64,000 bases of DNA from Candidatus Bipolaricaulota bacterium (GCA_023132915.1 JAGLXM010000075.1:1165-65164), one strand, 5' to 3'. Counted from the first letter of the stretch, positions 1,680 through 63,760 are shown. Notes: generated from the letters alone by a model not told the origin. A program made the numbers and translations.

Positions 1680-2090
1680 ATGTCCACCACATACAAGTTC
1701 CAGGATCTGCGGGTGTACAAGTTAGCATTGGAGTATGTGGATACCGTGTACAAGTTGAGCGGGAGCCTGCCGCAGTCGGAGCACTTTAATCTCCGATCGC
1801 AACTGGAACGAGCAGCAACTTCTGTGGTGCTAAACATCGCAGAAGGGTCAACGGGGCAAAGTAATGCAGAACAGAACCGTTTTCTAGGGCTAGCACTGAG
1901 ATCTTACTTAGAAACGATAGCCTGTCTTGACATTATTGGACAGCGAGGCTACCTAGCGAGTAATGCAACTACAGAAGTAAGGAAACTGGGGCATGAGCTT
2001 TTCGTCAAGCTGCAGTCTTTCCGGCGGGCTTTGAAGGCTCCCCTCTCCGGTCCTCGGTCTTCAGTCTCCCATCAGGAGGTCGAATCATGA
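1680..2090 (+). CDS. Four-helix-bundle protein (23S rRNA intervening-sequence protein family, PF05635-like)
   Basis: 136 aa. FQDLRVYKLALEYV...LRSQLERAATSVVLNIAEGS...RFLGLALRSYLETIACLDI matches the family pattern. Its stop overlaps the ATG of the wzt remnant (ATGA). Confidence 0.85.
   Translation: MSTTYKFQDLRVYKLALEYVDTVYKLSGSLPQSEHFNLRSQLERAATSVVLNIAEGSTGQSNAEQNRFLGLALRSYLETIACLDIIGQRGYLASNATTEVRKLGHELFVKLQSFRRALKAPLSGPRSSVSHQEVES
2044..2066. repeat. Right arm of the inverted repeat bracketing the four-helix-bundle ORF (inside its 3' end)
   Basis: TCTCCGGTCCTCGGTCTTCAGTC is complementary to 1647-1669 (19/23). Confidence 0.65.
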
Positions 2091-2604: not shown

Positions 2605-2974
2605 GAAAGCAAGAAGAGATCTTCTTACAGCGGAGAGAGGGCTAAACTCTGCGGAGCCGTTTACGGATATAGTATGCTTCCACGCCCAGCAAGCGACAGA
2701 GAAGCACTTAAAGGCCTACTTGCTTTGGCATGGAATCGAATTCCCCAGGACACACGCCCTTGAAGACCTCGTGCTTCTTGCGGCTGAGAAGGATGCTGAC
2801 TTCGCACTGCATAAAGACGAGGTGACAATGCTTACCCCTTACGCGGTGGAGACTCGTTACCCCGAGTTCGAAGAGCCTTTGCTGGAGGATGCAAGAGAGA
2901 TGGTTCGTATTGCAAGAGGAATCCGAGACTTTGTGTTGGTGAAGCTGCCCGAAACGCTTACAGGCACGGAATAA
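2564..2974 (+). CDS. HEPN-domain protein (toxin partner of MNT)
   Basis: 136 aa. ..CFHAQQATEKHLKAYL...PRTHALEDL.. is a HEPN R-x4-6-H-like motif. Overlaps the MNT gene by 41 nt. Confidence 0.85.
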   Translation: MKNSKADLVRGWLEKARRDLLTAERGLNSAEPFTDIVCFHAQQATEKHLKAYLLWHGIEFPRTHALEDLVLLAAEKDADFALHKDEVTMLTPYAVETRYPEFEEPLLEDAREMVRIARGIRDFVLVKLPETLTGTE

Positions 2975-3046
2975 TGACGTATGAGGTAGTATCATGCCAC
3001 CGCTTGTTGCAGCTAGAATTTTGTGGGAGATGGAAGGTGAATTCTG

Positions 3047-3125
3047 ATCCGCAATTCACATTTCGAAACTGCCGTTTTCCTCTTGCGATTCGAAATTCGC
3101 TTTTCGCAATTCGAAATTGGAGCTT
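3047..3125. repeat. Low-complexity repeat upstream of wzt (GCAATTCGAAAT-type words)
   Basis: ccgcaattcacatttcgaaa .. gcgattcgaaattcgc ttttcgcaattcgaaattgg, with repeated TTCGAA cores just 5' of the wzt start. Confidence 0.45.
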
Positions 3126-3179
3126 TTCAATCCTCAATGCATATCTCAACGAATATAACAAACGGAACAAATCAGACTA

Positions 3180-4535
3180 ATGAGTAACAATATTGCCATC
3201 CGTGTTGAGAACCTCAGCAAACGCTACCGCATCGGCCAATACGTCGGCAGCGGTGCGCAATACAAGACCCTGCGCGAGAGCCTGACCAATGCTGTCTCCG
3301 CGCCCCTGCATTGGCTACGCCAGACAGGAGACAGAAGACGGAAGACCGATCTCCCGTCGCCAGCCCCCCGTCTCCGGTCCTCTGTCGCCGGTCAGCCGTC
3401 TACCGACGGCTACATCTGGGCCCTCAAGGACGTTTCTTTCGAGGTGGGACACGGCGAGGTGGTGGGCATCATCGGTAGAAACGGTGCGGGGAAGAGTACG
3501 CTTCTAAAGGTGTTGACCCGTATCACGGAGCCCACCGAAGGGCGGGCGGAGCTAAGCGGCCGTGTGGGGAGTCTGCTGGAAGTAGGGACGGGATTTCACC
3601 CTGAACTCACCGGGCGAGAGAATGTATACTTGAGCGGTGCGATTCTTGGGATGGCACGAAAAGAGATTGATCGGAAGTTTGACGAGATTGTCGACTTCTC
3701 CGGAGTGGAGAAGTTCATTGATACGCCGGTCAAGCGCTATTCCAGCGGTATGCGCGTCAGGCTCGGGTTTGCGGTGGCTGCCCACCTGGAGCCGGAGATT
3801 CTATTGATAGATGAAGTTCTGGCGGTGGGAGACGTAGCGTTCCAGAAAAAATGTCTAGGGAAAATGGAAGATGTGGCCCGGGGTGGCAGAACTGTGCTTT
3901 TTGTGTCACATAATATGGGCATGATAACCATTCTCTGTGAAAAAGCGATATTACTAACGGAAGGGCGTATTGACTTTATGGGGCCAGCTCAACAGACCGT
4001 AAGCACGTATTTGGCTAACTTTAGCGCAGATGCTGGCCTGAAAAGGAGATGGAGTTTTGAAGAAGCCCCTGGCGAAGAGAATGTCAAAATAAGAAGCGTT
4101 GCGATAACTGATCATCTGGGTATTGAGAAACCGTATTTTTCGACCGCTGAACCGATATTCGTTACGATAGAGTATTGGGTTTTAGCTGATGACATTCCAG
4201 TCAACGTAGGATTCAGTTTGCTTGACAAAGAAGATAATTGGGTTTGTGCGGTCGGCAATTATGAGGAGACAAGATCAAAGCCAATTCGAAAGAGTGGATT
4301 ATACAGGTCGAAATGCACAATTCCTGGGAATTTGTTGAATAGTGGCAGGCATTCAATCACAGTGACGGCAGTAAGAAATCTTACAGATCTTCAGGTGAGA
4401 ATATCTCATTGTGTTGCCTTTGAAGCAGTGGACGATCGTCGAGTTCACCCGTACTCTGGTAGATGGGGAGGAATTATAAAACCCGAATTTGAGTGGCATA
4501 GCGAGAAGGTTGGCGATGTTGGAGGAGAGGAATAG
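3180..4535 (+). CDS. wzt: O-antigen/polysaccharide ABC exporter ATP-binding protein Wzt with C-terminal carbohydrate-binding-type extension
   Basis: 451 aa. Walker A GRNGAGKST, signature YSSGM, Walker B LLIDEVLAVGD, then ~180 aa of beta-rich C-terminal domain (..VKIRSVAITD..FVTIEYWV..NVGFSLLDKE..). Confidence 0.9.
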   Translation: MSNNIAIRVENLSKRYRIGQYVGSGAQYKTLRESLTNAVSAPLHWLRQTGDRRRKTDLPSPAPRLRSSVAGQPSTDGYIWALKDVSFEVGHGEVVGIIGRNGAGKSTLLKVLTRITEPTEGRAELSGRVGSLLEVGTGFHPELTGRENVYLSGAILGMARKEIDRKFDEIVDFSGVEKFIDTPVKRYSSGMRVRLGFAVAAHLEPEILLIDEVLAVGDVAFQKKCLGKMEDVARGGRTVLFVSHNMGMITILCEKAILLTEGRIDFMGPAQQTVSTYLANFSADAGLKRRWSFEEAPGEENVKIRSVAITDHLGIEKPYFSTAEPIFVTIEYWVLADDIPVNVGFSLLDKEDNWVCAVGNYEETRSKPIRKSGLYRSKCTIPGNLLNSGRHSITVTAVRNLTDLQVRISHCVAFEAVDDRRVHPYSGRWGGIIKPEFEWHSEKVGDVGGEE

Positions 4536-14570: not shown

Positions 14571-15788
14571 ATGACACCCTTTGACAAAAGTGATCCCACA
14601 CAATTCTTTGCTCATCATATCGGAGGACGGGCGGGTAGTGTAGCATTTCCGGACTTGCCAAAATTCAGGGAGGAAATCGTAAACGTAATCTATGATGCCG
14701 ACGATAGTTGTCTTGCTCAAATCGAAGATATATGGTACGCAAAAAACGTATTGGTTTTACCCTATTGCTTATCGAACAAATGCGGGCCGGCAAAATTTAA
14801 CATAAATTATGATCCGTACGGAAGTTCGTTATTTCCGATGAACCCGAGTTTTGGTAACTTTTATATTAAAGGACAGGATGGGTACTCTGATTGTCTTATG
14901 GCAGGTGCGCTAAAAACTGAAAAAATTATCGACGTGGAGACCCATACGCTTGATTCTCTTGTTGAAACGAATGTAATACCTCCGCCTGATTTTTTATCGA
15001 TTGACACACAGGGTGCTGAGCTCCTTATTCTTGAAGGCGCGTTGCATTGTTTAAATCAAAATATTGTTGCCGTTGAAGTTGAGATTAATCTTGCATCGCT
15101 CTATGAAGGGGCCCCGCTATTCGGTCAGTTAGATGAGTTTCTGAGGAAACACAACTTTTTATTAGTTAATATAGAGACTATTGACATCGGGTACAAAAGA
15201 ATTCCAGAGTCATGCCGGGGAGCAGGAATCCCTTTACAAGGAGAAGCACTTTATCTCCTTCGACCGGATTCTGTTAAAGGATCAGATAATATTGAGCTTA
15301 CCAGGAAATTAGAAAAGTTGGCTTTTGCGGCATTAGCTTTCGGGTACACAGAAGTCGCTTTTGATGCCCTTGAAAGATCTGTTAATTTGGCTCCTGATGC
15401 GCCAAAGCCGCAATTGTATCAAAAATTCTTGTACAAATTTTTCGAAGAAGTAAAACAGCGCACTGATATTCCCTTGCTTTGGCATGAAATCTATTCTTTT
15501 GAAGAGAGCAATAATCGATTTGCCGGCGTAGGGGGGGGGGTATCAACAAAACAGAGGTACCTAAAATTGCTCAGGGATCAACCTTTAAAGTATTCCCTGA
15601 TAATAACGGGAAAAATTTTGCGGAAAATATATCATGCGGTGATATCTATGATTCGAAAATCTCTTTCGATATTCAGGATCAAGGTGTCAGTGCTTCCCAA
15701 AAGAACCCGGTTCGACTCCTTTCTGATCAAGAATGGTTTTCACATAGCAGTTCAGCGTATCCATGAAAGAAAACAGAGGGGACTATAA
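14571..15788 (+). CDS. FkbM-family methyltransferase (paralog of 4567..5781), contains a G10 tract
   Basis: ..HHIGGRAGS.., ..PDFLSIDTQGAELLILEGA..VAVEVEI.. . First gene of the visibly AT-richer block. Confidence 0.8.
   Translation: MTPFDKSDPTQFFAHHIGGRAGSVAFPDLPKFREEIVNVIYDADDSCLAQIEDIWYAKNVLVLPYCLSNKCGPAKFNINYDPYGSSLFPMNPSFGNFYIKGQDGYSDCLMAGALKTEKIIDVETHTLDSLVETNVIPPPDFLSIDTQGAELLILEGALHCLNQNIVAVEVEINLASLYEGAPLFGQLDEFLRKHNFLLVNIETIDIGYKRIPESCRGAGIPLQGEALYLLRPDSVKGSDNIELTRKLEKLAFAALAFGYTEVAFDALERSVNLAPDAPKPQLYQKFLYKFFEEVKQRTDIPLLWHEIYSFEESNNRFAGVGGGVSTKQRYLKLLRDQPLKYSLIITGKILRKIYHAVISMIRKSLSIFRIKVSVLPKRTRFDSFLIKNGFHIAVQRIHERKQRGL
15531..15540 (+). repeat. Homopolymeric G10 tract inside the FkbM CDS
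   Basis: gta gggggggggg ta, encoding VGGGV, within otherwise AT-rich sequence. Confidence 0.95.
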
Positions 15789-27011: not shown

Positions 27012-28069
27012 TTTCATTGGCAAAGGGATTCCCAGTGAACAAACCTCTTATCATTCGCGCCGACGCAAATACTCATATAGGCACCGGCCACTTAATGCGC
27101 TGTCTGGCTCTGGCTCAGGCTTGGAAAGATTCTGGTGGAGAAGTTGCCTTCATCACCGCTTGTGAAAGCGACGGTTTGCTGCAGCGCCTTTTAGACGAAG
27201 GGTTTCAAATCGTTACTGTGGAGCGATCTTATCCCGATCCTGCTGATTTGGAAGCCACCTCTCAGGTTCTAGCGGCACATCCAAACGCATGGGTGGTGTT
27301 GGATGGGTATCACCTTGACGAAGTCTACCAGAAACAGGTAAAAGAGGCTGGCCATCCGCTGCTCGTGATAGACGATATGGCTCACTTAGAGCACTACTAC
27401 GCGGATATTGTGCTGAACCAGAATCTGCATGCAGCGCAGTTGCACTACTCCTGTGAGCCCTATACCCAGCTTCTGCTTGGTACCCAATACGTGCTTCTTC
27501 GACGTGAGTTCCTGGAGTGGCAGGACTGGAAGCGGGAGATTCCAGAGGTGGCGCGGAAAGTGCTGGTTACACTGGGCGGTGGCGACCCTGACAACGTAAC
27601 TCTTAAGGTAGTCCGAGCACTGCAACAAGTAAACGTGGACGATCTTGAGACGGTAGTCGTCGTTGGTGCCAGCAATCCGCATTTTCGAGAACTTCAATCC
27701 GCAATCCGCAATCCGCAATCCGCAATCCGTCTTGTCCAAAACGTTACTAACATGGCGGAATTGATGGCCTGGGCCGATGTGGCGATTTCTGCGGGGGGGA
27801 GTACCTGCTGGGAGTTGGCGTTTATGAGATTACCCAGTGCGATTTTGGTTTTGGCAGAGAATCAAGAAGAAACAGTACGAATGTTGACGGAGCGAGCGGT
27901 TTTTCTCAGCCTTAGAGATGGACACAACACCCAGTTACAAGATATTGCACAAGCACTTACACATTTACTGCTGAACCATGAGATTCGAAGAAAACTAAGT
28001 CAAAAGGCCTCTCTTTTGCTAGATGGCTTAGGGGCCCTTAGGGTTATAGAAGCTTTATCTGGAATTTAA
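27008..28069 (+). CDS. pseG: UDP-2,4-diacetamido-2,4,6-trideoxy-beta-L-altropyranose hydrolase, PseG-like
   Basis: 353 aa. LIIRADANTHIGTGHLMRCLALAQ.. and ..ISAGGSTCWELAFMRLPS.. (GT28-C-like). Start codon uncertain (TTG in the track). Confidence 0.75.
   Translation: MISLAKGFPVNKPLIIRADANTHIGTGHLMRCLALAQAWKDSGGEVAFITACESDGLLQRLLDEGFQIVTVERSYPDPADLEATSQVLAAHPNAWVVLDGYHLDEVYQKQVKEAGHPLLVIDDMAHLEHYYADIVLNQNLHAAQLHYSCEPYTQLLLGTQYVLLRREFLEWQDWKREIPEVARKVLVTLGGGDPDNVTLKVVRALQQVNVDDLETVVVVGASNPHFRELQSAIRNPQSAIRLVQNVTNMAELMAWADVAISAGGSTCWELAFMRLPSAILVLAENQEETVRMLTERAVFLSLRDGHNTQLQDIAQALTHLLLNHEIRRKLSQKASLLLDGLGALRVIEALSGI
27695..27729 (+). repeat. Perfect tandem heptanucleotide CAATCCG x5 inside the pseG-like CDS
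   Basis: caatccg caatccg caatccg caatccg caatccg, encoding ..QSAIRNPQSAIR.. . An extra copy lies at 27673-27679. Confidence 0.95.
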
Positions 28070-32592: not shown

Positions 32593-34424
32593 CTGGCCCG
32601 ACTTTGACAACGCCAAACGAGAAGTGCTGTTCCGAAGGGCAATACAGGGATCGTCAAGGTCGCGTGGCACTACGCTTTGGGTCAGCGAGCGTCTCAGTCG
32701 AGTCGTTCGATCCGTCGAGGAGGGACGATCTTCAGCGCCTGGAACGCTGCCATGCTGACAGCGGGGATCTCGTCGCGCATTCGGTAGCGGCTTCCGTTGC
32801 CGTCATCTAGCACCACCGCCCGCACCCGCGACAGTCCCTCCATTAGCTCGACGAACGACCCGTCGAACGATCGCTCCGCCAACCGCTTCTTGAGGATCTG
32901 CCGTAGGATGAACGCGAGGAAGCAAACGGTGATGTGCCCACGGACCCGTTGCGCGGTCCAGTGGTAGATCGGACGAAGCTCCAGCGGTGTCTTCAGCATC
33001 CGGGACGCTTCCTCCACCTGCCACAGCCTCTTGTACGCCACCGCCGCCTCGGCAGCCGTCAGTCGGGCGTCGTTGGTCCGTAGCACCCACTTCCCGTCGT
33101 AGCGAGCATCCGCTTCGATCTTCCGTCGATCGAGTGATGCTCCACCGGCCTGGGTCCGTACGTACCGCCGTGCCGCTCCTCGCAGCAACCCCTTCACCGA
33201 TCCCGTCTCCAGGCGCTTGCTGAGCATCTCAACGATCGCTTCCCGTTCCCGTCGGTCCGCCTCCACCGCCTCGGGGTTGCGACAGACGATGTAGCGGTCC
33301 TCGACATCGGGAAGGTCGACCTCTTTCACCTCGAGGTTGTCGGCGACGGTGTGGTAGCGTCCCGAGTGGGACAGGACCTCCTGGGCGACCTTGTCTCGTC
33401 GCAGCTTCGTCGCCACCAGGTACGGCATCCCAACTTCACGCAACGCTTGCAGGTTCGCCTCGGTCACCATCCCACGATCACAGCAGAGCATCACTCGTTT
33501 CACTCCGAGCGTCTCTCGTACCGCCTCAACCGCCAGACGAAACGCTGAGGGGTCGGCGGTGTTCCCCGGGAAGATCACGTGGGCCACCGGAAGTCCTTTC
33601 CTCGTCATTACCACCCCCAGGCCGACTTGCCGTCGATCCCCGCGGTGATCTCGCGAGTAGCCAAACGCTGCCAACTCCTCGGGGTGGGTCCCTTCCACGT
33701 ACGTCGAAGTGGTGTCGAAGTACAACAGATCGGTGTCGGTGAACAGATCCCGATGACGGGCGAACCATCCCGCCTCGACGTCATTCTTCACCTCGGCGAG
33801 GCGATCGAGTGAGCGGTACAGATCGTGCAGTTCGAGATCGTCAAACGGCGCACCGTAGACGTCGTCGCGGAAGCGCAGCGCAGCGCACTTCGATCCCGGA
33901 TCGACCAGTCGATGCAGCACCATCAAGTAGACAGCATCCGCCTGTCGTTGCGTAAGTCCGGCGTCCTTGATGATCGGAGCGAACGTCTCCATCCACAAGC
34001 GCCCCCACACCAGCGAAGCTCCCCAGATCCGTGTCTCCACTCTGGATCGATCGCTGAGGAGGATCGATTCGAGCTCGGCGTAGCGGTTCGCAGTCTCTAC
34101 CAGCGAACCGAGACCCTTGCGCAGCCGTGGATCGTCAGTCCGTCCCAGTGTGGCCAGCACCCGTTGGCGGGTCTTTCCATCGACGCGGCGGTTCTCGACG
34201 AGTTGGAGGTAGGTGGTAACGGTGCCATCCTGGTTGCGTCGCTTCTTCTCGCGGATGAACATGACACCTCATGATACCACACATTCATCAGGCAGAGAAG
34301 GGGACATCCATCACTAACGTGGCACCACAAAGCACCTCTCAAACGACCCTCGACACTACCGAAACCCAGTTCCCTTGGCATCGAGGTATCCAGAAAGCGC
34401 CGATTCTTGTCAAAGTCGGGCCAG
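32593..34424 (-). mobile_element. IS1634-family insertion sequence with perfect 18-bp terminal inverted repeats
   Basis: CTGGCCCGACTTTGACAA at 32593-32610 and its exact reverse complement TTGTCAAAGTCGGGCCAG at 34407-34424. Single 522-aa transposase inside. Visibly GC-richer than its surroundings. No matching flanking direct repeat seen. Confidence 0.85.
32694..34262 (-). CDS. IS1634-family (IS4-like DDE) transposase
   Basis: 522 aa. N-terminus MFIREKKRRNQDGTVTTYLQLVENRRVDGKTRQRVLATLGR is typical of IS1634 transposases. Confidence 0.9.
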   Translation of the reverse strand: MFIREKKRRNQDGTVTTYLQLVENRRVDGKTRQRVLATLGRTDDPRLRKGLGSLVETANRYAELESILLSDRSRVETRIWGASLVWGRLWMETFAPIIKDAGLTQRQADAVYLMVLHRLVDPGSKCAALRFRDDVYGAPFDDLELHDLYRSLDRLAEVKNDVEAGWFARHRDLFTDTDLLYFDTTSTYVEGTHPEELAAFGYSRDHRGDRRQVGLGVVMTRKGLPVAHVIFPGNTADPSAFRLAVEAVRETLGVKRVMLCCDRGMVTEANLQALREVGMPYLVATKLRRDKVAQEVLSHSGRYHTVADNLEVKEVDLPDVEDRYIVCRNPEAVEADRREREAIVEMLSKRLETGSVKGLLRGAARRYVRTQAGGASLDRRKIEADARYDGKWVLRTNDARLTAAEAAVAYKRLWQVEEASRMLKTPLELRPIYHWTAQRVRGHITVCFLAFILRQILKKRLAERSFDGSFVELMEGLSRVRAVVLDDGNGSRYRMRDEIPAVSMAAFQALKIVPPRRIERLD

Positions 34425-39610: not shown

Positions 39611-40696
39611 ATGAGCAAAGTACTAATTACTGGCATAACAGGGCAGGATGGTTCCTACCTAGCTGAGCTATTGCTCCATAAAGGATATGAGGTTCATGGC
39701 CTTATCCGTCGCGCCAGCACCTTCAACACAGACAGGATCGATCATATCTATCGAGATCCCCATGATCCTAATGCACGGCTCTTTCTTCACTACGGGGACC
39801 TCGCGAACGGCGAGCAGCTCTCAAACCTGATCTACAATGTGAAGCCGGACGAGATTTATCACTTGGGAGCCCAAAGCCATGTGCGGGTGAGCTTTGACAC
39901 TCCGGAGTACACTGGTGATGTAACTGGTTTAGGCACCACGCGCATTCTGGAAGCCATCCGCCGAAGCGGTATCAAGACTCGGTATTACCAGGCCTCTAGT
40001 TCGGAGATGTTCGGCGCTGCTGCCCCACCACAGAGTGAGAACACGCCCTTCCGGCCGCAGAGCCCTTACGCTTGCGCGAAAGTGTACGCTTATTGGATGG
40101 CAGGTAACTATCGGGATGGGTACAATCTTTTTGCCTGCAACGGCATTCTCTTCAACCATGAGTCACCAAGGCGAGGTGAGACCTTCGTTACCCGTAAGAT
40201 TACACGCGCTATTGCCCACATCCTTGAGGGGAGGCAGAAGAAGCTCTACCTGGGGAATCTCAAGGCCAAGCGCGACTGGGGCTATGCTCCAGAGTATGTC
40301 GAGGCGATGTGGCTGATGCTCCAACAGGATCGCCCTGACGATTTCGTGATCGGAACCGGAGAGACGCACTCGGTGCAGGAGTTCCTGGAGGAGGCGTTCG
40401 CCTACGTGAATCTGGATTGGCAGGAGTACGTGGAGATTGACCAACGCTACTTCCGACCGACCGAGGTTGAGTTCCTGCTGGCCGATCCTTCGAAGGCTAA
40501 GGAAAAACTGGGATGGGTGCCGAAGATCACGTTCAAGGAACTTGTAAGGATCATGGTCGATGCTGACATGGAGGCGATTGGTCTAGAGCCTATTGGCGAG
40601 GGCAAGAGGATCATGGAAGAGAAGTTTACCGGTTGGCATCGCTGGGACACGGGCGTGAAGGCGGTGTATGAGAATACGAGGAGAGCAGTTGAGTAG
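39611..40696 (+). CDS. gmd: GDP-mannose 4,6-dehydratase
   Basis: 361 aa. [34 protein letters not shown], ..SSEMFG.., ..[12 protein letters not shown].., ..[19 protein letters not shown].. . Confidence 0.95.
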
Positions 40697-40797
40697 GGAA
40701 ATTGTTGAGTAGTTGAGTGGGAAAAGCGAAGGAACGGAGGGCCAGGTGAAGAGGGAAATGGTTAAGTGGAGGAGTGGTTGAGTGGGAGGAATGGATG
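40687..40797. repeat. GTTGAGTRG-word low-complexity repeat; left terminal inverted repeat of the gmd|fcl insertion
   Basis: agttgagtagggaaattgttgagtagttgagtgggaaaagc .. ggttaagtggaggagtggttgagtggg. Its outer part is the reverse complement of 42006-42039. It supplies the gmd stop codon. Confidence 0.65.
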
Positions 40798-41262
40798 AGT
40801 CCACGTCGTCTATATCTAGACACCAGTGTCTATAACCGACCCTTCGATGGCCTCTCACAAGCACGAGTCTGGCTCGAAGCGTTAGCCTTCGCTACTATAC
40901 TGCAGATGATTGAATTGGGCGGTGTAGAATTAGTAAGCTCTGAGGTATTAGAGTTTGAGAACAGCAGGAATCCCTTTTCCCATAGAAGGGCGTGGGTAAG
41001 CTTTTATCTGAGTTTGGCCAAAGATTACCAGGAATTGGATGAGTCGATCCGTAAGCGAGCGCAAGGTTTGGAAAGCAAGAGATTGGAACCACTCGATGCT
41101 TTACATCTGGCCTGTGCAGAGGGAGCTGAGGCTGAATATTTCATAACCTGCGATGATCGGATCATAAAGAGATACCAAGGGGAAGCACTGAAAGTGATGA
41201 ACCCCGTGAATTTTGTGATCAGTGAGGTGATAGGAGATGGCGGAGATCAAGGTGAACAGTGA
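40795..41262 (+). CDS. PIN-like domain protein (putative toxin)
   Basis: About 155 aa. LYLDTSVYNRPFD.. N-terminal acidic motif, ..DALHLACAEGAEAEYFITCDDRIIKR.. C-terminal PIN-like motif. Confidence 0.6.
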   Translation: MSPRRLYLDTSVYNRPFDGLSQARVWLEALAFATILQMIELGGVELVSSEVLEFENSRNPFSHRRAWVSFYLSLAKDYQELDESIRKRAQGLESKRLEPLDALHLACAEGAEAEYFITCDDRIIKRYQGEALKVMNPVNFVISEVIGDGGDQGEQ

Positions 41263-41452
41263 TCAGGAGATCCTTCGAGAGGCCGAAGAGGTGCTGCGGG
41301 TACATCTGGGTCCGGCCAAAGCGACTCGCTTTTGGATCGCTCTAGGCGGTGGGGCTGGAGACTACCTGCAAATTAAAGAAACGCTCTTCAAAGGCGAGAC
41401 TGTCGATACCCTGTACGAGAAAATAGCAGAGCAGAAGGGGGAGGAGAGATAG
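41237..41452 (+). CDS. Small partner protein of the PIN gene (putative antitoxin, uncharacterised family)
   Basis: 71 aa. Overlaps the PIN gene by 26 nt. A paralogous 3' end occurs at 2..187. Confidence 0.45.
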   Translation: MAEIKVNSDQEILREAEEVLRVHLGPAKATRFWIALGGGAGDYLQIKETLFKGETVDTLYEKIAEQKGEER

Positions 41453-41535
41453 TTAAGTAGGAAAATAGTTGAGTGGTTATGTGGGGCAGTGGAACTATTC
41501 AACGATTTAACTAATCAACCACTTAACTAATCCCA
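41451..41535. repeat. Imperfect palindrome of GTTRAGTRG words immediately 5' of the four-helix-bundle pseudogene
   Basis: agttaagtaggaaaatagttgagtggttatgtgggg ... ttaactaatcaaccacttaactaatccc. The two arms are reverse complements (tagttgagtggtt versus aaccacttaacta). Confidence 0.65.
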
Positions 41536-41536
41536 G

Positions 41537-41911
41537 ATGAAATCGACGTCGACCTTTGAAGATCTCGAAGTCTGGTAAAAGGGAAGAGAGTTAAGGAAAG
41601 ACTTTTCGCAATTAGTCAGGCGACTTCCCCCTGATGAGAAGTTTCGACTAGCCGACCAGATTCTCCGTGTCTCGCGATCGGTTACGGCCAACATAGCCGA
41701 AGGATACGGCAGGTTTTACTATCAAGAGAACATCCAGTTCTGCCGTCAGGCCAGAGGCTCATTGTTTGAGTTGGTGGATCACCTTACTGTAGCCTTTGAC
41801 GAGGGTTACGTCGATGAGGAGAAGTTTGGAGGGTTTAGAGAGCGAGTCTTCGAGATTATTCGTATACTAAATGGCTATATCAAGTATCTGAAAGGAAGGA
41901 AGAACAGTTGA
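41537..41911 (+). pseudogene. Four-helix-bundle protein gene (23S rRNA IVS protein family) with an in-frame TAA at codon 14
   Basis: MKSTSTFEDLEVW*KGRELRKDFSQLVRRLPPDEKFRLADQILRVSRSVTANIAEGYGRFYYQENIQFCRQARGSLFELVDHL.. . Absent from the ORF track because there is no Met after the stop. Confidence 0.8.
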
Positions 41912-41920
41912 GGACAACAC

Positions 41921-42040
41921 AGTCGAGTGGGAAAATGGTTAAGTGGTTATGTGGGGGAACGGTCTTACTTGACTACTCAACTACTCGACAATTTTACCTT
42001 GCACTGCTTTTCCCTACTCGACTACTTAACTACTCAACTC
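41921..42040. repeat. Imperfect palindromes of GTTRAGTRG words 3' of the four-helix-bundle pseudogene; right terminal inverted repeat of the insertion
   Basis: gtcgagtgggaaaatggttaagtggttatgtggggg .. cttacttgactactcaactactcgac .. gcttttccctactcgactacttaactactcaact. 41927-41961 is a direct repeat of 41457-41491. Confidence 0.65.
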
Positions 42041-42051
42041 TGTGCTCATAG

Positions 42052-43056
<1,005 letters not shown>

Positions 43057-61352: not shown

Positions 61353-61377
61353 CAATTGCGGTTTACTTGATGTAGGG

Positions 61378-61497
61378 GTTCATTGAGTTCGTAGGGTTCA
61401 TTGGGTTCGTTGAGTTCATTGAGTTCGTAGGGTTTATGGGGTTCGTTGAGTTCATTGAGTTCGTAGAGTTGGTGGAGTTCATTGGGTTCGTAGGGTT
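61378..61497. repeat. Tandem array of about 13 degenerate 9-mers (GTTCRTWGR)
   Basis: GTTCATTGA GTTCGTAGG GTTCATTGG GTTCGTTGA GTTCATTGA GTTCGTAGG GTTTATGGG GTTCGTTGA GTTCATTGA GTTCGTAGA GTTGGTGGA GTTCATTGG GTTCGTAGG. Followed by a GAGTCGG-type heptamer module at 61507-61545. Confidence 0.9.
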
Positions 61498-61670
61498 AAA
61501 AACACTGTCAGGAGTCGGGAGTCCAGAGTCGAGTGCCGAGATTCAATGTTCACTAGATTTTCAAGCTAGATAGAAGGATTTGAACTAGGGAAACTGGACG
61601 TGGTAAGATAAGTTTCCAGGGATGGTAGAGATTAGGATAGAATATCGTGAATCGGCGGAGGTGGGAAAGT

Positions 61671-61889
61671 ATGTCTGATCAGGTAGATCTTGGAACACTC
61701 CTTAAGCGGGTTGATTCCTTGGAAGGGGAGATAGGGCGGCTTAAGCGCGACTTGCTCCGCAGTTTAGTAGTCCAGCCACGGGGAAAGAAGGTGAAATCCT
61801 TGTTTGGTAGTGTACAGGGCGGTGATGTGACTGAAGAGATGATTGAGGAAGCGAAGCGGACCCTGTTTCGGCCCCTGGAAGACTTGTAG
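61671..61889 (+). CDS. Small coiled-coil protein, putative VapB-type antitoxin
   Basis: 72 aa from ATG 61671 (RBS ggaggtggg). Ends 5 nt before the PIN gene. Confidence 0.5.
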   Translation: MSDQVDLGTLLKRVDSLEGEIGRLKRDLLRSLVVQPRGKKVKSLFGSVQGGDVTEEMIEEAKRTLFRPLEDL

Positions 61890-61894
61890 ATCGT

Positions 61895-62293
61895 ATGGAA
61901 GAGCCGACGCTTTATGTTCTCGATACCCATGTGCTCATCTGGTACTTCATCGGGAGTAACCGTCTGCGGCAGAAGCTCAAAGAACGCATCGATAAAGCTC
62001 GCCGACGAGGCGGTCGCCTGTTGGTTCCGACCATCGTGTTATCCGAAGCGCTGGATGTCGCTGAAAAGGGTCGAGTAGAACTGGATTTTGCTGGGATGTA
62101 TAGGTTGATTCGGGAGGAACCGGAGTTTGAGATTGTCGGCTTTGGGCCTGACGTTTTTGAGGAAACGATGCGAATCAGGGAGATTCAAGAGATTCACGAG
62201 CGGATCATCGTGGCTACAGCCAGGTTTTATGAAGCAGGGATGCTAACAAAAGATCGAATCATCCGTGACTCAGGAGAGGTTGAAACTCTATGA
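61895..62293 (+). CDS. vapC: PIN-domain ribonuclease toxin (VapC-like)
   Basis: 132 aa. ..LYVLDTHVLIWYF.., ..PTIVLSEAL.., ..IHERIIVATA.. acidic PIN residues. Confidence 0.8.
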   Translation: MEEPTLYVLDTHVLIWYFIGSNRLRQKLKERIDKARRRGGRLLVPTIVLSEALDVAEKGRVELDFAGMYRLIREEPEFEIVGFGPDVFEETMRIREIQEIHERIIVATARFYEAGMLTKDRIIRDSGEVETL

Positions 62294-62583: not shown

Positions 62584-63501
62584 ATGGGCGGGCTGGCGAT
62601 CGTAGTGGGGTTCGGTTCCGGGATTTTGCTTGCGGTCGCGTTGGTAAGCTTCTTTCATGTTTTCCCTTCGGTAAACCTAGTCGTCTTGCTGGCGGTGCTC
62701 TCTACCGTCCTGTTGGCTGGGCTGATCGGGATAGTGGATGACTTGCTTGGGGGGTGTAGTAAGTCGAATCCAGTTACTACACCCGCCTCGGAGAGTGTAG
62801 TAAGTTCCAAACCGACTACTACACCCCCCGAGGGCATGCGGCAGTGGATGAAGGCACTGTTGCCGGTGTTCGCGGCGTTACCGTTGATGGCGGTGCGGGC
62901 GGGGCATACGTTCATGAAGATTCCGTTTGTAGGGACGCTCAACTTCTGGATCTTTTACCCCTTGGTGTTGGTTCCCGTGGGGGTGACTGTCGTAGTAAAC
63001 GCGGTGAACATGCTCGCTGGGTTCAACGGCGTGGAGGTGGGACTGGGAATCGTCGCAATAGGAAGCCTATCGATCATCGCCGCCATCCTGCATGAGACCA
63101 CCGCGCTGATCCTTCTTCTCTCCGGCCTGGGCGCGCTTCTTGGCATTATCTACTTCAATTGGTATCCGGCGAGGATCCTGGTGGGAGACGTGGGAACGCT
63201 TTCGATTGGGGCCATCATCGCCACCGCGGTGATCGTGGGTAACTTCGAGACAGCGGGTGTGATCGTGATCATCCCATATGCGATCGATTTTCTGTTCAAA
63301 GCAGTGCACCGCTTCCCTACGAGTTTCGGCGAGCTCCGTGAGGATGGGAAACTGCATTGTCCTGCGGAAGGGCCTGTGGGGTTGGGGCAGTTCATCATGA
63401 AGGTAACGCGTGGAATTCACGAGCGGACGCTAGTCGTTACGTTGATGGGGATTGAGGCGATTTTCGGGCTAGTAGCTATTGCGTTGTATGTGTGGAGGTG
63501 A
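62584..63501 (+). CDS. Glycosyltransferase family 4 polyprenyl-phosphate HexNAc-1-P transferase (MraY/WecA/WbpL family). The first TM segment is separated by an in-frame TAG, and it carries a 90-nt in-frame palindromic insert.
   Basis: ..GIVDDLLG.., ..NAVNMLAGFNGVE.., ..LVGDVGTLSIGA.. . The in-frame upstream segment 62452-62565 (MIVAPFFVSLLVSFFCVPILITRLKRAGISGSDIHKSS) ends at TAG 62566-62568. Confidence 0.8.
   Translation: MGGLAIVVGFGSGILLAVALVSFFHVFPSVNLVVLLAVLSTVLLAGLIGIVDDLLGGCSKSNPVTTPASESVVSSKPTTTPPEGMRQWMKALLPVFAALPLMAVRAGHTFMKIPFVGTLNFWIFYPLVLVPVGVTVVVNAVNMLAGFNGVEVGLGIVAIGSLSIIAAILHETTALILLLSGLGALLGIIYFNWYPARILVGDVGTLSIGAIIATAVIVGNFETAGVIVIIPYAIDFLFKAVHRFPTSFGELREDGKLHCPAEGPVGLGQFIMKVTRGIHERTLVVTLMGIEAIFGLVAIALYVWR
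62746..62835. repeat. 90-nt double palindromic element inserted in frame in the GT4 transferase CDS
   Basis: Hairpin 1: gggtgtagtaa (62752-62762) with ttactacaccc (62774-62784), a perfect 11-bp stem. Hairpin 2: gtgtagtaagt (62795-62805) with actactacac (62815-62824). Encodes GGCSKSNPVTTPASESVVSSKPTTTPPEG. Confidence 0.85.
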
Positions 63502-63760
63502 GGAATAGCTGTCAGCAGTCAGCGATCAGCAGTCAGCATCTAGCTAAAGGCTGATGGCTGAAAGCTGGTACACGGTGATGAGTGAGGAGGGGCTGGGTTC
63601 ATAGGGTTGATAGAGCCCATTGTGTTCGTTGAGTTAGAAAATAGTCAATCCTGTGGGGAATGGCCTGGAAGCAGTGATGGGTAATGGGTGATGAGGCTCA
63701 GGGGAGGGATTGAAGGATTACGGATCAAGGTCAGTCTCTAGCCTGTAGATTCTGGACTGA
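63501..63760. repeat. Composite low-complexity region (heptamer-periodic modules) downstream of the locus
   Basis: gtcagca gtcagcga tcagca gtcagca; aaaggctgatggctgaaagctgg; gggttcatagggttgatagagcccattgtgttcgttgagtt; gtgatgggtaatgggtgatgagg. Same word families as 240-660, in the opposite orientation. Confidence 0.65.

Follow-up and report, generated by a model that had tools for sequence, protein, structure and literature searches.

The spacer between gmd and fcl in a 64,000-nucleotide stretch of DNA from Candidatus Bipolaricaulota bacterium (the window) is probably an element of the intervening-sequence (IVS) type, with a PF05635 gene in its loop and a long, imperfect stem of repeat arrays. 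The stem would consist of an upstream GTTRAGTR octamer array and a complementary array downstream. An open reading frame (ORF) set within such a stem, with fixed polarity, is a general property of the PF05635 family outside rRNA. At gmd-fcl, the PF05635 element is old and is common to lineages with saturated synonymous divergence of gmd, while the alleles of the cassette are mosaic and younger than the flanks. A PIN-domain gene and its small partner are a polymorphic add-on that is present also in another context, and the pair is better framed as a toxin-antitoxin-like module captured in an ORF-bearing IVS-type element.

Two co-directional host genes enclose the element. Upstream is gmd (39611-40696, plus strand), which encodes GDP-mannose 4,6-dehydratase (TIGR01472, 528 bits against a cut-off of 415). 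Downstream is an fcl-like gene (42073-43056, plus strand) for an epimerase/reductase of the GDP-L-fucose synthase family; its top match was GDP-L-fucose synthase (NF047922), at 285 bits and thus below the 500-bit equivalog cut-off. The best Gmd matches were to Anaerolineaceae/Chloroflexota (70 to 75%), and the closest MAGs carry the labels Bipolaricaulota and Bacillota. As proposed in a preliminary description of this DNA, gmd and fcl are separated by a PIN gene, a partner gene and a nonsense-mutated four-helix-bundle gene, all on the plus strand. The first of these (40795-41262) encodes a toxin-like protein of 155 amino acids that matched PF01850 (35.3 bits against a cut-off of 23.6; E = 2e-8) and none of the VapC models of NCBIfam. 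Its homologues are 79 to 99% identical, with dN/dS values of 0.13 to 0.30. The partner gene (41237-41452; 71 amino acids) overlaps the 3′ end of the PIN gene and adjoins it in every homologous locus; no match was found in Pfam, NCBIfam or PADLOC. The third gene (41537-41911) belongs to the PF05635/TIGR02436 family of four-helix-bundle proteins, named "23S rRNA intervening sequence protein" or S23p (PF05635, E = 1.8e-31; TIGR02436, 103 bits; structure 2GSC, E = 1e-8). In the window it is a pseudogene, inactivated by a TAA codon (41576-41578) at the position of Gln14 of the family, in the conserved W-Q-K. This nonsense codon is a recent acquisition. The gene is intact in loci L003, L005 to L007, L171, L172 and L176, and its dN/dS in relatives was 0.07 to 0.16. 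Such purifying selection suggests a protein function, which the IVS-type model leaves unspecified.

A profile search of the ORFs inside the cassette found no transposase, in agreement with the preliminary description, and a consensus scan found no promoter or terminator there. The hairpins of the cassette lack T-tracts and are therefore not intrinsic terminators. Rfam returned no family, rRNA included, for 40400-42300 at E ≤ 1, and a PADLOC scan returned nothing meaningful at the locus.

Within the window, the octamer arrays are confined to the gmd-fcl locus. All 12 copies of GTTRAGTRG in the 64 kb lie inside 40688-42038 (1.38 expected), a count reached in none of 100 shuffles, and double-octamers were absent from 627 kb of control loci. 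These counts argue against the idea that the flanking strings are ubiquitous simple sequence. Other short-period arrays, with different units, occur in the window at 61376-61491 (a 9-mer, 12.7 copies), 63507-63538 and 27695-27729. The terminal strings begin and end where they had first been placed, and they form a genuine inverted repeat that is particular to this site and pairs the two ends of the segment. The left outer arm (40687-40727, plus strand) is a (+) array of GTTGAGTR units, and the right outer arm (42006-42039, plus strand; repeats I1, I6 and I10) is a (-) array complementary to it. The two match at 22 of 25 aligned positions, a score equalled by none of 2,000 random pairs of window segments. 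A direct repeat between 41457-41491 and 41927-41961 was likewise found as described (27 of 30 positions; 0 of 2,000 random window pairs with an equal score). The inner arms reported around the four-helix-bundle ORF (41507-41534 and 41927-41958) are present, and none of 2,000 random window pairs equalled their score, but they are weaker than had been described, with a perfect complementary core of just 11 nt. A separate repeat search listed the inverted repeats I1 (26 nt, 81%), I3 (20 nt, 95%) and I6 (18 nt, 89%), as well as the direct families D1 to D3 in the cassette.

The left outer arm is homologous to the arm found right after gmd in L005, L006 and L172 to L174 and is 93 to 100% identical between lineages; the right outer arm is conserved to the same degree in L005 and L006. 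A second (+) array (40744-40786, plus strand; direct repeat D1) forms the leader of the PIN module. It is of the same type as the leader before the PIN gene in L177 and is missing from L172 to L174. Just 5′ of the PF05635 ATG lies hairpin B (41451-41532, plus strand; I2, D2 and D3), made of a (+) array (41451-41485) and a (-) array (41493-41532). Tandem octamers thus stand upstream of the PF05635 ORF at both 40687-40786 and 41451-41485. Hairpin C (41921-41998, plus strand; D3 and I3), with a (+) array at 41921-41960 and a (-) array at 41967-41998, is a paralogue of hairpin B and a homologue of the hairpin behind PIN-partner in L177. A second PF05635 copy in the window (1680-2090) is bracketed by heptamers of a different unit, GACCGAN, which precede the ORF at 1647-1679.

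The left arm overlaps the end of gmd. The terminal codons GTT GAG TAG coincide with the first octamer, so that the stop codon (TAG, 40694-40696) does lie within the outer repeat, as had been noted. Gmd proteins of element-free relatives have the same end length (..GID*, ..GVD*), and the arm therefore overlaps the native V-E-stop and does not replace it. The notion that the insertion gave Gmd a new stop codon was rejected for this reason.

Predicted RNA structures are consistent with a long-range stem. The outer arrays paired in both the minimum free energy (MFE) and the centroid structures, for the element of L006 as well as for that of the window, with the right outer arm paired to 5′ arrays. 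For L006, the stability of the whole-element fold did not significantly exceed that of shuffles (z = -1.5). In the window, the arrays can also fold locally, into hairpins B and C, and the long-range stem is one of two alternatives. Hairpin B (dG = -26.5 kcal/mol, z = -3.2) remained local in the whole-element fold, and the segment 41915-42045, which spans hairpin C, folded with a dG of -38.6 kcal/mol (z = -4.6). Mismatches in the arms showed no excess of sense-strand G-U (83) over A-C (109), and transversions (234) dominated. The arms thus show no covariation of the sort expected under selection for an RNA helix, and a stem cut by RNase III is accordingly something that we infer. Stop codons in at least two of three frames were found in 33 of 45 upstream arms and 22 of 45 downstream arms, a difference too weak to claim the upstream arm as translational insulation.

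Related loci separate the components of the cassette. Three diverged lineages (L005, L006 and L007) lack the PIN pair and have the order gmd-[arrays]-PF05635-[arrays]-fcl; L007 shares the layout with octamer arrays of its own and also carries an "empty," hairpin-only copy. The closest PF05635 homologues all occupy a gmd-fcl spacer and are accompanied by octamer arrays of the same type. Since the same outer arms enclose PF05635 alone in L005 and L006, they are the old arms of the PF05635 element, and since PIN-partner is absent from L005 to L007, it is a separate module inserted inside that older element. The nested content seen initially was therefore borne out, while the single 1.35-kb mobile cassette proposed with it was not. 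The trio of PIN, partner and intact PF05635 was present in at least three other lineages (L171, L172 and L176), with the upstream gmd visible in L172 and L176 but not in L171; the contigs of L173 to L175 and L178 break off ahead of PF05635 or within it. In L003, the same PIN pair occurs together with a different PF05635 allele. In L177, PIN-partner, with the same leader and hairpin, lies outside the gmd-fcl context in a toxin-antitoxin island, where heptamer arrays also separate the toxin-antitoxin modules. The module has copies of the same (+) array on either side and a hairpin of the same kind behind it, and its presence or absence did not track gmd or fcl relatedness.

Divergence at these loci points to exchange of the cassette between lineages. 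DNA identity was 71 to 82% for gmd and 65 to 81% for fcl, compared with 77 to 93% for PF05635, and dS decreased from gmd (1.0 to saturated) to PF05635 (0.5 to 1.4) to PIN (0.27 to 0.88). In sliding comparisons, the PF05635 gene of the window resembled that of L006 in its 5′ half and was identical to that of L005 in its 3′ half. Conservation was 93 to 100% in the arms, in the final 100 nt of gmd and in the leader of fcl. The lower dS of the cassette, together with its mosaic alleles, indicates lateral exchange by recombination. A recent insertion is contradicted by the synteny of the gmd-fcl arrangement in at least eight related contigs, whose flanking genes are just 65 to 83% identical in DNA. 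PF05635 is intact in those contigs, a situation close to the one (conserved synteny and intact reading frames in relatives) that had been named as speaking against the mobile cassette. Compared with the tight gmd-fcl junctions of distant taxa, the segment is indeed extra DNA: in 36 of 80 species representatives, fcl follows gmd immediately, and PF05635 and the arrays are both absent there. The empty junction that had been sought was thus found in distant taxa, but neither an empty site in a close relative nor an excision product nor another identical copy was detected, and searches of plasmid and phage DNA gave no match to the cassette. We infer mobility of the PF05635 unit from its many contexts and from the distant empty junctions.

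PF05635/TIGR02436 has at least 7,952 relatives at E ≤ 1e-10, and the layout recurs across the family. Seventy-one metagenomic PF05635 homologues were scored for inverted 7- to 9-nt arrays. An inverted bracket score of at least 28 was obtained for 65% of these ORFs but for 6.6% of 76 control ORFs (Mann-Whitney p = 4e-16), and flanks with periodic arrays of 7 to 9 nt were found for 41% and 14%, respectively. The repeat units vary from element to element (for example, CGTTAAA, GGGTGTA and GGGAAAA), while the arms, with a median length of 31 nt and a maximum of about 100 nt, stay complementary. Polarity is fixed; the sense strand is G-rich and C-poor upstream of PF05635, with the complement downstream, and G exceeded C in the upstream arm of 38 of 43 elements (p = 2.5e-7). 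Double-octamers occurred at 3.8 per kb beside PF05635 and 0.16 per kb elsewhere (23-fold), in the + orientation upstream of the gene and the - orientation downstream. The upstream neighbor was co-directional in 56 of 60 cases, and neighbors covered 91 Pfam families. Among named cyanobacterial and Bacteroidota records, four of five (Riemerella, Calothrix, Stanieria and Nostoc ATCC 53789) had the same layout, with proteins of 35 to 38% identity. The literature covered on PF05635, TIGR02436 and S23p, which took in a minority of the subscription journals, gave no account of this layout outside rRNA.

Other readings of the locus were weighed against an IVS-type element. It is very unlikely that the whole 1.35-kb segment is one non-autonomous transposon with terminal inverted repeats (TIRs), MITE-like with cargo and mobilised in trans, and as a single unit such a transposon is largely refuted. 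It would account for inverted ends far above chance, the lack of an internal transposase, the tight, empty gmd-fcl junctions of distant taxa and the short contigs that break at arrays. It does not account for arms that enclose PF05635 alone in L005 and L006 (or for the like layout of L007 with its own arrays), for the independent presence or absence of PIN-partner, or for synteny across lineages with saturated gmd dS. Moreover, there is no target-site duplication at 40687 or 42039, where the junctions (GGAGAGC/AGTTGAG and CTCAACT/CTGTGCT) share no direct repeat; the arms consist of a short unit in degenerate arrays and have no defined terminal sequence; and the plasmids and phages searched held no copy. 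The sole IS of the window (transposase gene at 32694-34262) has perfect 18-bp TIRs, CTGGCCCGACTTTGACAA, that are unrelated to the octamers, and mobilisation by this IS was rejected for that reason. An integron-like cassette array, in which the hairpins are attC-type sites and a tyrosine recombinase moves the cassettes, is more improbable still. GTTRAGT fits the core GTTRRRY, ACTYAAC fits RYYYAAC, and PIN-partner and PF05635 are each followed by an imperfect hairpin; toxin-antitoxin genes, moreover, are typical integron cargo. However, the order in the hairpins (GTTRRRY...RYYYAAC) is the reverse of that in attC (RYYYAAC...GTTRRRY), the sites are not single R/L boxes but tandem arrays with multiple copies and variable length, and the units CGTTAAA, GGGTGTA and GGGAAAA of related elements misfit the attC core. 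On these grounds an attC reading of GTTRAGT was rejected. The cassettes also lie inside a biosynthetic operon, and no integrase was found among the genes within about 6 kb or the other ORFs scanned, which were part of those of the window.

The arrays might also be generic intergenic repeats of the genome, simple or STRR-like, with cassette genes merely accumulating in a permissive spacer. The other arrays of the window, the heptamers between toxin-antitoxin modules in L177 and the intergenic heptamer repeats known from cyanobacteria and Beggiatoaceae (PMC4679880) would agree with this. We nevertheless consider it unlikely, given the 23-fold enrichment of the octamer motif beside PF05635 with none in the control loci, the excess of inverted brackets (65% against 7% of controls), the fixed array polarity relative to the ORF and the fact that other phyla, like the Coxiella IVS (PMC4990558), show the same architecture built from different units. 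A host regulatory device, with arrays that bind the PF05635 pentamer or switch RNA folds, a tuned gmd:fcl ratio or mRNA stability, and PIN as an associated RNase, is possible but doubtful. Purifying selection on PF05635, stronger conservation of the arms and adjacent leaders than of the coding flanks, and four arms that permit two mutually exclusive folds (1:2 and 3:4, or 1:4 and 2:3) would all suit it, and repeated units would suit multivalent binding by a pentameric toroid protein (2GSC; PMC4990558). Against this, elements of this type are found in rRNA (PMC4990558) as well as in the operons of 91 unrelated families, which speaks against a role specific to gmd, and PF05635 is dispensable in the window, as its nonsense codon shows. 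Recent recombination explains the conservation of the arms equally well, and neighboring synonymous sites of gmd are conserved too.

The IVS-type element that we favor would work as follows. Having no promoter or terminator of its own, it would be co-transcribed with gmd-fcl, and its arrays would pair in the transcript. By analogy with rRNA intervening sequences, RNase III might then cut the stem. Cutting would free the RNA of the cassette while the two host cistrons stayed functional, so that the element would be nearly neutral. Modules could be gained, lost and swapped by recombination between shared arrays or, alternatively, by homologous recombination in the conserved 3′ end of gmd and the fcl leader, and such exchange would need no dedicated transposase. 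More speculatively, the repeated units may be binding sites for the pentameric PF05635 protein.

A wider proposal, which we put forward tentatively and as a whole, is that PF05635 with its inverted 7- to 9-nt arrays constitutes a widespread, undescribed class of promoter-less "hitch-hiker," the counterpart in mRNA operons of the rRNA IVS. Such elements would lodge at the 3′ end of a co-directional gene in Chloroflexota-like bacteria, Cyanobacteriota and Bacteroidota. The array stem would remove the element from the transcript, the arrays would serve in addition as scaffolds for recombination, by which toxin-antitoxin modules are captured and exchanged, and the pentameric protein might recognise its own repeat units. 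If true, this would explain the origin of part of the cyanobacterial STRR-type heptamer arrays. PF05635/TIGR02436 is among the most abundant uncharacterised small protein families, and its many independent operon instances make processing, protein-repeat binding and mobility testable. The inverted arrays around PF05635 offer an origin for some intergenic short-period repeat arrays, and the locus documents toxin-antitoxin modules slotting into polysaccharide loci without the need for a transposase. The result for the window itself is more modest: an old, recombining accessory cassette with one decayed gene.

Several known systems share features with the cassette. The accessory protein Avd of diversity-generating retroelements (DGRs) belongs to the same four-helix-bundle superfamily, but the match to NF033474 is weak (E = 1e-3; 19 bits against a cut-off of 80), and neither a reverse transcriptase among the neighbors nor template/variable repeats nearby were found. 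As in type II toxin-antitoxin pairs of the PIN (VapC-like) kind, a PIN protein is joined to a small, translationally overlapping partner, and the pair is mobile, strain-variable and found in a toxin-antitoxin island (L177). Unlike in VapBC, the partner lies downstream rather than upstream and matches no antitoxin family, and toxicity is putative. With MITEs and other non-autonomous TIR elements, the cassette shares inverted ends, the lack of an internal transposase and hairpin-only derivatives (hairpins B and C and the "empty" copy in L007). It differs from them in that it lacks a target duplication, a defined terminal sequence and, within the window, a matching autonomous element, and in its conserved ORF under purifying selection. 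The STRR or heptamer arrays of cyanobacteria and Beggiatoaceae are tandem intergenic units of 7 to 9 nt, strand-polar and often 5′ of starts (PMC4679880), and such heptamer arrays make up the arms of the cyanobacterial PF05635 genes. The arrays described here differ in forming complementary pairs around one gene family, a link to PF05635 that is not made in PMC4679880, and in their host, whose best Gmd matches are from Anaerolineaceae and which is not a cyanobacterium.

The closest known relative is the ORF-bearing 23S rRNA IVS of Coxiella and Leptospira. In Coxiella, terminal inverted repeats form a stem that is cut by RNase III, and the loop contains a decaying S23p ORF whose ATG is preceded directly by tandem GACAGAT heptamers (PMC4990558). 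The nature of rRNA intervening sequences and the role of the S23p ORF have been open since the early 1990s (PMC4990558). The cassette differs in its site, between the protein-coding genes gmd and fcl and not in an rRNA helix; in its arms, which are long degenerate arrays where the IVS stem is a near-perfect 28 bp; and in its four arms, extra hairpins and captured PIN-partner module. Excision by RNase III, known for the Coxiella IVS, would apply to the cassette by analogy. Like the rRNA IVS of Coxiella burnetii and Leptospira, the cassette has a PF05635/S23p ORF in the loop of a stem of terminal inverted repeats and lies inside a host transcription unit, in the same orientation. Both carry short tandem repeats 5′ of the ORF (GACAGAT in Coxiella, GTTGAGTR here and GACCGAN at the second copy in the window), and both have a decay-prone ORF, a sporadic distribution and signs of lateral transfer (PMC4990558).

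In the window, gmd (39611-40696) is separated from an fcl-like gene (42073-43056) by a PIN-domain gene (40795-41262), an overlapping gene for a 71-aa partner without a family match (41237-41452), and a PF05635/TIGR02436 four-helix-bundle gene (41537-41911). In the last of these, a TAA at 41576-41578 stands in place of the family Gln of W-Q-K; this nonsense codon is recent. The window belongs to a metagenome scaffold in ENA. The best species-representative matches of the encoded Gmd are from Anaerolineaceae/Chloroflexota (70 to 75%). The 64-kb window has 12 copies of the motif GTTRAGTRG, all of them within 40688-42038, compared with ~1.4 expected, and 0 of 100 shuffles reached 12. Copies are on the + strand at 40688-40785, 41452-41476, and 41938 and on the - strand at 41519, 41973, 42022, and 42030. 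The outer strings, 40687-40727 and 42006-42039, form an inverted repeat (22/25 aligned positions), the inner arms have a perfect core of 11 nt in common, and the direct repeat 41457-41491/41927-41961 matches at 27/30 positions. None of 2,000 random segment pairs of the window reached any of these scores. The sequence at 40687-42039 is as the preliminary description had given it.

Among PF05635 proteins on usable contigs, the three closest (related contigs L005, L006, and L007) are each encoded in a gmd-fcl spacer, without the PIN pair but with the same octamer in their arrays. The simplest layout, in L006, runs from the gmd stop through a (+) array, a 9-nt spacer, and a (-) array to PF05635 and then through a (+) array and a (-) array to fcl. 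Nucleotide identity to relatives is 71 to 83% for gmd and 65 to 81% for fcl, and 77 to 93% for PF05635. PIN homologues (79 to 90% identity) were found in loci L171 to L178. The trio is complete in L171, L172, and L176, where the PF05635 ORF is intact, and gmd is seen upstream in the latter two. L173, L174 (which shares its sample with the window), and L178 carry gmd-PIN-partner on contigs that stop before or within PF05635, and L175 has PIN-partner preceded by a fragment. In L177, the PIN gene (86%) and its partner are preceded by the same leader as at window 40757-40786, and the hairpin behind them is a homologue of window 41930-41990; the context is a toxin-antitoxin island, and neither PF05635 nor fcl lies behind the pair. 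The presence or absence of PIN does not track with gmd or fcl similarity. In the window, PIN-partner lies between the left arm and the PF05635 ORF, with a (+) arm copy on each side. The same-type arrays of the PIN-less loci and the independence of PIN from gmd and fcl similarity show that the outer arms are the ancestral arms of the PF05635 element and that PIN-partner is a second module, gained and lost as such.

Assembly breaks or N-runs lie in or beside the cassette arrays of L172 (~925-935) and L174 (~410-420) and at the ends of L003, L004, and L177; L172 has alternative partner-to-PF05635 junctions, one on each side of its N-run. These breaks suggest that variants coexist, or that the repeats are multicopy, in the community. 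L007 (GCA_040754835.1) has an "empty" hairpin copy after the PF05635 element (2880-3565), in which the same left-arm end, ..gaaggaaggccctgtatggtggtc, is joined straight to the same right arm, ttacttaacaactcgacc.., as if an ORF segment of ~400 nt had been precisely excised from, or added to, the hairpin loop. The 41-nt right arms of the filled and empty copies are identical. In L008, a PF05635 fragment lies upstream of the neighboring glycosyltransferase.

This architecture is general in the family. An alignment scan of metagenomes for PF05635 gave 80 further loci at 54 to 77% identity (one partial match at 90%), and 71 PF05635 ORFs with 150-nt flanks were compared with 76 control ORFs from the same loci. 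The bracket score (local alignment of the upstream flank with the reverse-complemented downstream flank) had a median of 30 for PF05635 and was ≥28 in 65%, versus a median of 16 and 6.6% for controls (p = 4e-16). Strong 7- to 9-nt periodicity was found in the flanks of 41% of PF05635 ORFs versus 14% of controls. The repeat units vary by element (GTTGAGTR, GTTATTGG, GTTAAATA, CGTTAAA, AAGGTAAGT, and GAAATCA), and still the arms are complementary; the median distance from the upstream arm to the ATG is 32 nt, and the downstream arm starts 14 nt past the stop. The arms have a fixed polarity: in 38 of 43 cases, the upstream one is rich in G and poor in C, and double octamers, 23-fold denser beside PF05635 than elsewhere, favor the + strand upstream (32 versus 11) and the - strand downstream (58 versus 11). 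The elements are also co-oriented with their neighbors, upstream in 56/60 and downstream in 37/50 cases, and these neighbors represent 91 Pfam families (e.g., gmd/epimerases, nuoF, nucleotidyl transferases, ABC transporters, and response regulators). Riemerella, Calothrix NIES-22, Stanieria, and Nostoc ATCC 53789 have the same design at 35 to 38% protein identity, with arms of heptamer arrays (z, 6 to 21). The second, intact PF05635 gene of the window (1680-2090) is bracketed by GACCGAN heptamers, of the GACCGAT type before the gene. We consider this family-wide rule worth more than the single locus, which is itself of moderate interest. On plasmid gamma of Nostoc sp. PCC 7120, a PF05635 gene (15088-15438) retains a C-rich heptamer array on its downstream side only; upstream, it adjoins an ISL3 transposase gene, and the element may have been truncated by IS insertion.

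Junctions without the element were found in distant taxa. Of 80 species representatives, 36 (Chloroflexota, Cyanobacteriota, and Verrucomicrobiota, among others) have fcl directly 3′ of gmd, with gaps of tens to about 350 nt, none of which contains PF05635; no empty site was found in close relatives. One weak PF05635-like match (L025) lies ~1.5 kb downstream of a gmd without adjacent fcl. There was no double octamer in 627 kb of species-representative loci, so that the arrays arrive together with the element. The first octamer, GTTGAGTAG, overlaps the Val-Glu-stop of gmd, but Gmd proteins from loci without the element terminate at an equal length (..GKGID*, ..ENGVD*), so the stop is native and not donated by the repeat.

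Compared by sliding-window identity, the window, L005, and L006 give a mosaic pattern. All three are 93 to 100% identical over the final ~100 nt of gmd, the first and last arms, and the fcl leader. The 5′ half of the window PF05635 is ~90% identical to L006 and ~68% to L005, whereas the 3′ half and hairpin C (41921-41998) are identical to L005 and ~65% identical to L006. In L003, from another sample, a gmd end and PIN pair identical to those of the window are combined with another PF05635 allele, which is intact. Synonymous divergence falls from gmd (dS 1.0 to saturated) through PF05635 (0.5 to 1.4) to PIN (0.27 to 0.88), and dN/dS is 0.07 to 0.16 for PF05635 and 0.13 to 0.30 for PIN. These values indicate that the cassette genes encode functional proteins in relatives and are younger than the flanks, with which lateral exchange by recombination agrees.

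The preliminary description took the cassette for a nested, nonautonomous mobile element with terminal inverted repeats. It is indeed accessory, nested, and free of a transposase. A single, recently inserted transposon with such repeats is rejected, because relatives carry same-type arrays around PF05635 without PIN and their flanks are strongly diverged. We conclude that the cassette is a PF05635 element of the rRNA intervening sequence (IVS) type in an mRNA operon, with a captured PIN module. The cassette would be cotranscribed with gmd-fcl, since it contains no promoter or terminator consensus and its hairpins lack T-tracts. A long closing stem is predicted to form in the transcript: in minimum free energy and centroid folds of L006 and the window, the 5′ arrays pair with the 3′ arrays and hairpin B (41451-41532) stays local. 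For the local hairpins, which are weaker when the antisense strand is folded, the z scores are -3.2 and -4.6. A reading at the level of RNA only is countered by the lack of G-U excess among arm mismatches and by the ability of the four arms to fold alternatively as two local hairpins. For the IVS-type element, modules would also be exchanged by recombination at shared arrays and in conserved junctions.

Other modules occur in the window. An MNT gene (2242-2604) paired with a HEPN gene (2564-2974) follows the second PF05635 gene. Right after PF05635, at 2088-2168, stands a duplicate of the first ~80 nt of the downstream ABC-ATPase-like gene (3181 onwards), near-identical over a core of ~50 nt; insertion of the MNT-HEPN pair thus seems to have duplicated this 5′ end. 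After a polysaccharide-synthesis gene, 12.7 tandem copies of the 9-nt unit GTTCGTTGA start at 61376, and behind them lie a small ORF and the second PIN gene of the window (61895-62293); with a further short array of this type at 63595-63640, region 61376-62293 makes another array-bounded accessory module, with arrays in direct orientation. A very stable nested hairpin of GGGGGGTGTAGTAAGT... inverted repeats (62740-62835; dG, -49 kcal/mol; z, -6.5) lies within a glycosyltransferase-4 coding sequence (62584-63501) and looks like an in-frame palindromic insertion. An IS in the polysaccharide cluster (32593-34424) carries a DDE_Tnp_1 transposase gene on the - strand (32694-34262) and is bounded by perfect 18-bp terminal inverted repeats, CTGGCCCGACTTTGACAA. 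Other heptamer arrays, perfect or nearly so, occur at window 27695-27729 (CAATCCG, five copies) and between toxin-antitoxin modules of L177 (GTCCACA and GTGAATC types; 1990-2200 and 4440-4480). It appears that short-period arrays, with many different units, are a general trait of these genomes.

We found no description of PF05635 within arrays outside rRNA in the literature, of which coverage was incomplete, so that novelty is not thereby proven. The Xanthomonas homologue, whose solved structure is deposited with five chains (2GSC), is described as a homopentameric toroid (PMC4990558), and we speculate that a PF05635 pentamer binds the repeated units. Older proposals cited in the same paper regard IVSs as remnants of transposition, or as mobile elements with an ORF aiding mobility. 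In the 23S rRNA IVS of Coxiella burnetii, RNase III cleaves the stem, the loop contains a decaying ORF for S23p (PF05635), and two or three tandem GACAGAT heptamers directly precede the ATG (PMC4990558). The gmd-fcl element has all structural features in common with this IVS except the location in rRNA, and by analogy its closing stem would be processed by RNase III.
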